This document shows, in pieces, positions 18,436 through 18,700 of a DNA stretch of 64,000 nt. Source of the DNA: Chromatiales bacterium (GTDB lineage Bacteria; Pseudomonadota; Gammaproteobacteria; Poriferisulfidales; Oxydemutatoraceae). The position numbers were made by a program, and so were the translations under genes. The notes under the pieces are model-generated. The model was not told where the DNA came from and ran no database searches. It saw only the letters and a list, made by a program, of their open reading frames with translations. How positions within the stretch are numbered: the stretch's first letter is position 1; the number at the start of each line of letters is the position of its first letter. The stretch is taken from assembly GCA_014323925.1 (NCBI GenBank), contig JACONC010000003.1, positions 73 through 64,072 of the forward strand. The letters run 5' to 3'.

Positions 18436-18700
18436 CCTGCCTTACCATTAGGTAGATGGTATGTCATCATAAGCACGGTCTGGGAAAGCTCTGACCACGA
18501 CGCTTAAATAGGTCAATACGAGATCTAATAAGTCCCAAGCTGCCTTTCGAGTTCTATAGCCAAAGCGCCAGAGGTGTGCCGATCAAAGTATCGAACTTTT
18601 AGTTCAGCGCTTACATTGGTGTGTCACCTCTGGCTTACAAGGCATTGCACATACCCAAGCGTTTCGCTTACAGTAAATAAGCCAAATCTAAATATATCTG
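18262..18700 (-). mobile_element. IS110-family insertion-sequence remnant: left terminus, ~230-bp leader and truncated transposase
   Basis: The terminal repeat core at 18654-18700 (terminus ...ctaaatatatctg) lies ~220 bp upstream of the truncated tnp start. A 10-bp inverted repeat gccagaggtg/cacctctggc sits inside the leader. The same terminal sequence recurs at three other sites in the window. Confidence 0.5.

Follow-up and report, generated by a model that had tools for sequence, protein, structure and literature searches.

Among the described systems, the IS621/IS110 group of insertion sequences (IS) is the closest to the elements studied here (Durrant et al. 2024, PMC11208160; 8wt6). These elements have a long non-coding left end (LE) and a short right end (RE), and the joining of RE to LE in the circle assembles a sigma-70 promoter from two halves (PMC11208160). 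The LE RNA has a 5′ stem-loop region, a variable target loop and a conserved donor loop, and its guides (LTG, RTG, LDG and a discontiguous RDG) have published relations to target and donor sequences. Preprint work on partial and expanded IS110 loci (Hu et al. 2026, 10.64898/2026.08.14.744561; Xie et al. 2026, 10.64898/2026.08.31.748434) described terminus-anchored modules, tandem or nested partial copies and boundaries with one donor half-site. It also reported half-match recombination, partial fragments that re-integrate, and partial circles in which the left terminus is used again, with a 300-fold enrichment. In the case of ISPpu9, the RNA-encoding part of an IS110-family element also occurs solo elsewhere in the genome (Pares-Guillen et al. 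2025, PMC12288879).

Here, we analysed a window of 64,000 nucleotides from a Chromatiales bacterium (contig JACONC010000003.1, assembly GCA_014323925.1), in which a short repeat occurs four times. With a probability of about 0.85, this repeat is the terminal 27–72 bp left end of a ~1.3-kb IS110-group, IS621-like IS that was once mobile in this genome and is now dead. It belongs to a known kind of element, the IS110-family bridge-recombinase IS, but to a new, unnamed lineage of which the window holds only fossils.

The recombinase of the closest intact relative aligns over its full length with that of IS621, and the relatives share the long non-coding LE (255–284 nt), the short RE, the split promoter, the architecture of the LE RNA and the relations of all four guides, including the discontiguous RDG. 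In contrast to IS621, which has the core CT and a single 5′ hairpin, the core here is CA and two small hairpins are present on the 5′ side. In most members, the match of the left-side guides to the core is limited to its first base; moreover, the window copies are truncated and non-functional. The latter resemble the partial IS110 loci in being anchored at the terminus, in their tandem and nested partial copies (copy D and locus L003, see below) and in having only the RD half-site, whereas those loci are active pieces of kilobase scale and ours measure 27–72 bp, with no recombinase left and with a recombinase role in their formation that would be hypothetical. The ssr9 unit of ISPpu9 lies downstream of the transposase gene, is complete with boundary boxes and forms its own circles, while the window stubs are 3′-truncated at differing points and have no second boundary. 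Like REP elements and MITEs, the stubs are short, intergenic and multi-copy. However, they have neither terminal inverted repeats nor a second end; one end is fixed, the length varies, and the sequence is homologous to internal parts of an autonomous IS.

Four copies of the repeat share one fixed end

Copy A is located at 18629–18700 (minus strand) and covers LE positions 1–72. The other three are solo stubs: copy B at 33618–33662(64) (minus strand, LE positions 1–45), copy C at 46484–46555 (plus strand, LE positions 1–72) and copy D at 2439–2465 (plus strand, LE positions 1–27). Directly 5′ of copy D lies a 13-nt partial tandem copy of LE positions 1–15 (CAGGTATAT--AGAT; CAGGTATATAGAT; 2426–2438, plus strand). 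When brought into a common orientation, copies A–D begin at the same base (CAGGTATATTTAG…), whereas their inner ends differ, being at LE 45, 72 and 27 in the stubs B, C and D, respectively. The repeat therefore has one fixed end and three different inner ends among the solo copies, and a two-ended unit of the REP or MITE type was not found.

Copy A is 86% identical to copy C over 72 nt and 89% identical to copy B over 45 nt. Copy D shows 89% identity to copy C, and also to A and B, over 27 nt, with 24 of its 27 bases being those of copy C. A 23-nt core gave three matches in the window at no more than three mismatches (0.00 expected; 100 shuffles), and a degenerate 20-nt core found all four copies exactly (0.47 expected). 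The initial annotation had placed the core at these four sites, including the 13-nt tandem partial duplication, essentially as we find them, although without strands; the 24-nt fragment that it reported for copy D measures 27 nt. It had also put the repeat ~220 bp upstream of a transposase stub. The upstream location is correct, but the distance from the inner end to the ATG is ~195 nt. Measured from the element terminus, the ATG of copy A is 265–271 nt away.

A search of the window gave no inverted-repeat partner for the terminus, and the 10 kb past the right edge of the window contain no further copy of the repeat. Scans with exact and degenerate patterns through genome and metagenome contig collections, which do not contain this organism, gave no match.

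Intact relatives start with the same left end

To collect relatives, a full HMMER scan with the 88-aa protein fragment P0002 was followed by a search with the best full-length match, and loci were fetched for six proteins. The locus L014 (P0166) is without this left end and was left out of the comparisons. Full-length relatives are 53–61% identical to P0002, and P0164 (locus L010) and the partial P0003 are 66–67% identical. The proteins of the relatives carry both PF01548 and PF02371. P0164 scores 220 bits against NF033542 ("IS110 family RNA-guided transposase"; cutoff 140), and the relatives' recombinase aligns end to end with that of IS621 (8wt6; E=2e-46).

In loci L004–L013 and L015, the terminus (C/T)AG(G/A)TATA(T/C)T lies 255–284 nt upstream of the ATG and aligns with the window repeat. 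In L010–L013, which come from one circular genome of 2.96 Mb, it reads CAGGTATATTTAGATCTGGCTTATTTATTGTAAGCTAAATGCTTAGG, nearly the window sequence. Loci L005–L007 show one element in three contexts, with flanks that diverge just upstream of CAGG. A relatives-only LE profile, made from intact elements of other genomes (six or seven) without window or L003 sequence, matches copy A with E=1.2e-48 over 18700–18482, copy C with E=3.1e-13 and copy B with E=1.7e-5, in all three cases from model position 1. In the LE profile search of the window, copy C was recovered with E=5.4e-17 and copy B with E=2.8e-7 (model positions 1–45); copy D, with 27 nt, is too short to score (E=0.45).

These matches uphold the proposal of the initial annotation that the repeat is an IS110 left end, as do the collinearity of copy A and locus L003 into leader and transposase and the like start of the intact relatives. 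The opposite case that it had put forward, a REP-like element with no association to transposase genes, does not apply, as the repeat is linked to such genes. The core identification made at that time is right; new in the present analysis are the bridge-RNA content of the repeat and its part in donor site and promoter.

The four IS copies in L010–L013 are identical and all lie within a larger repeated unit, which in three of the four (L010, L011 and L013) adjoins PDDEXK_2 (Rpn-like) genes. Their target, TCTTAGCC-CA-ATAG, is therefore part of another multi-copy element.

The left end carries a core, half a promoter and a bridge RNA

The right ends of the relatives finish with TTGAYTTTNAATAAGGCAT followed by CA. 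An uninterrupted REP-like target near L009 (GGGAAGGCATGTTAGCCCTCCCC) and the junction sequences place the crossover at this CA. A core dinucleotide AG with a bulged guide was also considered and was dropped for CA on the basis of the uninterrupted target in L009 and the RTG matches. The relatives L005–L009 sit in a REP-like hairpin, GGGCGGAC-ATGCTA-GTCCGCCC, and variants thereof. The uninterrupted hairpin is found ~200 bp downstream of the L009 element (L009 ~2700–2740), and the flanks hold other repeated intergenic blocks.

Joining RE to LE yields TTGAYT-17-TATA(T/C)T in 7/7 intact elements, which have lengths of 1323–1344 bp. The window copies have only the −10 half (TATATT) of this junction promoter, and no RE is present in the window.

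The LE folds into two small hairpins followed by two long stem-loops with internal loops. The consensus structure drawn from eight sequences, one of them copy A, has 96.9% of its cells paired, with compensatory changes at 13 pairs; none of 500 shuffles equalled the observed value, and slid controls reached 33–46%. Stem-loops 1 and 2 are conserved across the relatives. The first internal loop is variable. On its 3′ side, the RTG is the reverse complement of core plus RT over 5–8 contiguous nt in 5/6 elements, and on its 5′ side the LTG equals LT plus core, at 10/10 positions in L010 and over 6–7 nt in others. The second internal loop is conserved: its AAGGCA(G/U)C equals the right-end terminus AAGGCATC, and its GUAU..ACCUG is complementary to the left terminus CAGGT..ATAT. 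In addition, LE position 4 covaries with the RDG, CAGGT occurring with ACCUG and CAGAT with AUCUG.

The repeat thus contains the core CA, the right-donor half-site (GGTAT in the relatives), the −10 half-promoter and the first two bridge-RNA hairpins. In copies A and C, it also extends into the basal stem of the target loop, where it includes the 5′ strand; copy C ends inside that strand. In the intact relatives, the element reads in the order core CA, half-site GGTAT, which pairs with its own RDG ACCUG, and −10 box TATATT. The latter acts as a promoter only once RE brings TTGAYT 17 nt upstream of it in the excised circle. Then comes a bridge RNA of ~200 nt, in which two small 5′ stem-loops precede the target-binding loop, which varies, and the donor-binding loop, which is conserved. 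The recombinase gene and a right end of ~65–75 bp complete the element.

Copy A is a decayed bridge-RNA gene with a recombinase stub

Copy A (18629–18700, minus strand) starts with the core CA at 18700–18699 and continues with the right-donor half-site and the −10 box TATATT (18696–18691), stem-loop 1 (18681–18667) and stem-loop 2 (18659–18637). The whole non-coding left end at this site (18436–18700, minus strand) is the bridge-RNA gene. Its target-binding loop (18634–18567, minus strand) has the LTG at 18616–18607 and the RTG at 18590–18584, and its donor-binding loop (18564–18490, minus strand) has the LDG-like AAGGCAGC at 18546–18539 and the RDG at 18519–18509. When we scanned with Rfam 15, only tRNA-Pro passed the gathering thresholds and no model detected the leader RNA; the permissive matches in 18200–18800 all have E>=1.6, far below gathering scores.

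The leader is followed by a 57-codon N-terminal stub of an IS110-family DEDD recombinase (18262–18435, minus strand; 55 aa from the second ATG). Its match to PF01548 (E=1.4e-3, 18.8 bits, cutoff 29) and that of the 55-aa form to NF033542 (E=2e-5) are below cutoff owing to the truncation, and tblastn against the full-length relatives gave E-values down to 2e-18. These matches support the IS110-type transposase stub of 57 codons that had been reported, and the long 5′ leader without terminal inverted repeats that had been expected of IS110 elements is likewise seen, with 265–271 nt in copy A and no inverted-repeat partner. Only the first 55–57 residues are covered, and the C-terminal domain (Transposase_20) is absent. 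The stub is cut ~10 bp before the accC stop codon (18253), and its homology to L003 stops at ~18270. Among 5.8 billion proteins, only two resemble it and both are truncated, namely the stub itself, listed as a hypothetical protein of a Chromatiales MAG, and the 88-aa fragment P0002.

Besides the gene being cut at codon 57, two pairs of hairpin 2 are broken and the core guide of the LTG is altered. The terminus CAGAT mismatches its own RDG ACCUA, with 3/5 bases pairing, and the left (LT) flank matches its own guide at 4/8 positions. Copy A is dead and its guides have decayed.

Between copy A and purA lies a hydrophobic ORF of 92 aa (18785–19063) that has no Pfam match and is not called in the ENA contig. 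The Logan contig L002 ends inside the copy A leader, at approximately position 18530 of the window.

A second locus with the same arrangement

The contig that encodes P0002 (L003, JGI 3300012945) shows repeat, leader and transposase N-terminus in the same order as copy A and is 85% identical to it over 428 nt. The outer edge of the repeat is precisely where the homology sets in, and the element is located behind hemE in L003 and behind accC in copy A. Between the two, the target loop differs in both of its strands but retains its stems, and the donor-loop block shows no difference over 44 nt. Judged from the alignment, conserved stems with differing target loops are the signature expected of bridge RNAs with different targets. 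L003 is probably another locus of the organism of the window, because the same JGI sample also holds contigs identical to the window. If so, the left end would occur six times or more in this genome, from which no intact gene is known.

A second LE is present at L003 10262–10338; it starts at a distance of 10 bp from codon 88 of the truncated transposase and is cut off by the end of the contig. The IS arrangement at this site is nested or tandem, and assemblies evidently break at the multi-copy LE.

Genomic contexts of the copies

Copy A is simply flanked by aroQ-accB-accC and hflKC-hisZ-purA, two operons whose ends converge on it. Copy B follows dsrL, and its inner end abuts a putative truncated DNA methyltransferase-like pseudogene (33400–33617, plus strand; …FIEPSAGEGCF…ADFLTW), assigned by sequence motif alone, whose reading frame continues into copy B and meets a stop there, the remainder of the gene being absent. 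Copy C is located between the rpsT promoter (46459–46431) and tRNA-Pro(CGG), and copy D between an ORF at 1318–2367 and the last gene of the T3SS operon (hpaP-like, 2637–3422). These contexts agree with the four locations given in the initial annotation (the T3SS end, the accC/purA boundary, after dsrL and upstream of tRNA-Pro).

In dsr clusters, dsrJOP are expected after dsrL. The dsrABEFHCMKL cluster of the window (25049–33279) stops after dsrL, and is followed by the pseudogene, stub B, three 1.1-kb paralogues and unrelated genes; from this gene order, dsrJOP must presumably lie elsewhere or have been lost. The view of the initial annotation that all four sites are rearrangement hotspots is unproven. 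The case for rearrangement at the stub sites is circumstantial and concerns copy B only, where the dsr cluster is broken and a pseudogene abuts the stub.

The three paralogous ORFs directly after stub B (33829–37145; 367, 367 and 356 aa) are arranged in tandem, in DNA blocks that are 91–92% identical with a period of ~1.1 kb, and have no Pfam match. The unrelated genes after the dsr cluster include TPR/Cds6_C and YkuD. The rpsT promoter (46431–46459, minus strand) is a perfect sigma-70 promoter (TTGACA-17-TATAAT, 12/12) and is 24 bp away from the outer edge of copy C.

Flanking sequences of the copies

With the guide register established in the relatives, a target can be predicted from the target loop of copy A. 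The left flank of copy C (TTGTAAGCA; 46475–46483, plus strand) matches the predicted LT (ATGTAAGC) at 7/8 positions in its TTGTAAGC part (P=0.002 against random window positions). The right flank, CAAAGGC (46557–46563, plus strand), matches the predicted core plus RT, CAAAGTA, at 5/7 positions (P=0.11 alone). For both flanks together P is ~3e-4 before correction for ~10 comparisons, and after multiple-testing correction the target-like flanks of copy C are suggestive. No predicted target of the A type was found elsewhere in the window. The flanks of copy B fit neither known target-binding loop (LT 2/8), those of copies D and A match at 4/8 positions on the LT side, and the L003a flank matches its own LTG at 5/8 positions, which is not significant.

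On the 5′ side of the copy D pair we noted a 15-nt motif, GTATAGTGTCACAAA (2411–2425, plus strand), which is shared with the flank of the nested L003 LE (13/15) and partly with the flank of copy A (18701–18711). This flank motif of 11–15 nt is neither a known LTG nor a repeated host motif. We also considered that it could be a right-end terminus, that is, a left donor. The relatives end in AATAAGGCAT followed by CA, which fits the LDG AAGGCAGC, whereas the motif does not. The left flanks of C and D show borderline similarity to internal LE segments (P=0.012 and 0.18, respectively; shuffling), to which we give no weight.

Origin of the truncated copies

The four copies would mark past insertions guided by a bridge RNA, whose interiors and right ends were later lost. 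The likeliest cause of this loss would be deletion entering from the right side, as part of IS decay in a host-associated genome. That the element bodies were deleted, as the initial annotation supposed, is plausible, and copy B points to it, since its inner end is fused to the truncated methyltransferase-like pseudogene of which the rest is absent. No other recombinase fragments were found in the window by tblastn with nine relatives. An intact recombinase gene is absent from the window, and none of this lineage was found in the protein database; as to the genome, the absence of an intact copy holds for the ~85 kb that were seen. Having neither a recombinase nor a −35 box, the stubs are presumably inert now. 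An RE profile found nothing in the window (best E=2.1), although the right end of the window lineage is not represented among the profiles, so that a diverged RE relic could be missed. The possibility that copy C is a MITE-like miniature of LE plus RE was discarded, as the profile gave no RE match near it.

Random deletion should leave RE stubs as often as LE stubs, and the observed 4 to 0 (5 to 0 with the nested L003 copy) therefore speaks against it. Likewise, the target-like flanks on both sides of copy C would rarely be preserved by random deletion and would count against plain decay. The stubs might instead be products of the recombinase, which we consider rather unlikely. Either partial circles anchored at the left terminus, possibly single-stranded, would have been excised and re-inserted under the guidance of the bridge RNA, or the excision of a partial circle that reached from a pseudo-site within the element to its true right end would have left the stubs in place. 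Every relic has LE position 1 and none has the right end, the flanks of copy C match at 7/8 (LT) and 5/7 (core plus RT) positions (joint P ~3e-4, uncorrected), and by inspection LE 64–71 (AAGCCAGA) resembles the LDG AAGGCAGC at 6/8 positions. Furthermore, copy D consists of LE(1–13) followed by LE(1–27), L003 has a new LE inside the transposase gene at codon 88, and partial circles, half-match recombination and re-integration have been reported (10.64898/2026.08.14.744561; 10.64898/2026.08.31.748434). However, the flanks of copy B match neither loop (LT 2/8), and a methyltransferase gene is cut at the inner end of this copy; D and A reach only 4/8 on the LT side, and the right junctions have no clean core CA where homology ends. 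Moreover, the elements with proven mobility are all far longer than 27–72 bp, and the evidence from copy C is suggestive at most once multiple testing is corrected for. A more specific form of this explanation is marginally more doubtful still. According to it, the LE stubs would be footprints of bridge-RNA-guided recombination of partial elements (half-match or pseudo-right-end), copy C would be a complete 72-bp scar of guided insertion or excision in a target specified by copy A, and the nested L003 LE and the tandem D would be self-directed re-insertions. If this were true, the element family would have destroyed itself, and its RD half-sites could have served as recombination points for adjacent rearrangements.

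Two further explanations take the repeat to be a unit of its own. For ISPpu9, solo copies of the RNA module and circles of the module alone are documented (PMC12288879), and stem-loops 1 and 2 are kept across our relatives, so the 5′ part of LE (half-promoter plus stem-loops 1–2) might be a selfish sRNA or promoter module that spreads via the IS recombinase, like ssr9. This is very improbable: the solo copies end at 27, 45 and 72, two of them inside helices, and share no second boundary, there is no −35 box, the orientation relative to neighbouring genes is inconsistent, and the flanks of the relatives that we examined have no solo copies. It is even harder to see the repeat as a host REP-like element that served as a target for IS110 insertion, copy A then being a REP beside an IS, a reading to which we give the least credence. 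IS110-family elements often target REP sequences and L005–L009 are inserted in a REP-like hairpin, but that hairpin differs in sequence from the repeat and is external to the CAGG terminus. The repeat of the window, by comparison, has its homology within intact elements that occur in unrelated contexts, and includes both the −10 box of the junction promoter and an RD whose changes go with those of the RDG; these observations refute the reading. Nor is the repeat palindromic as a unit. Decay of inserted elements, with loss of their interiors and right ends, remains our preferred explanation.

Implications for annotation and bridge-RNA studies

In terms of annotation, the four sites and the "hypothetical protein" of 55–57 codons are IS110-family remnants, and 18490–18681 is a degenerate bridge-RNA gene. 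The intact relatives form a small, previously undescribed clade of ~1.32-kb bridge-recombinase elements with core CA and a REP-hairpin target, and their legible LTG, RTG, LDG and RDG are comparative material that is useful for bridge-editing work. The stubs are an ordinary mobile-element fossil, yet an unusually informative one on the decay of IS110 elements, in a genome that is symbiont-like. That the left terminus is strictly kept in every relic, and that copy C has target-like flanks, hints at a natural ability of IS110 elements to leave behind or spread terminal fragments of very small size. Should this hint fail, what is left is routine IS decay in a host-associated sulfur oxidiser.

Other features of the window

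The T3SS cluster (2637–11484) adjoins dnaA-dnaN (11747–14382), near the expected replication origin, and dnaN is followed by dprA and not by recF-gyrB. At 28–401, we found direct repeats with a spacing of 102 bp, in three overlapping copies of 170 nt that are 78–83% identical; they lie within the gene of a TPR-repeat protein (25–504, minus strand). Finally, priA is one ORF of 729 aa in the window (58466–60655) and in the JGI contig L016, whereas it is divided into two ORFs (576 and 103 aa) in the ENA assembly (L017 5827–8016), which is likely an assembly frameshift or a strain variant.
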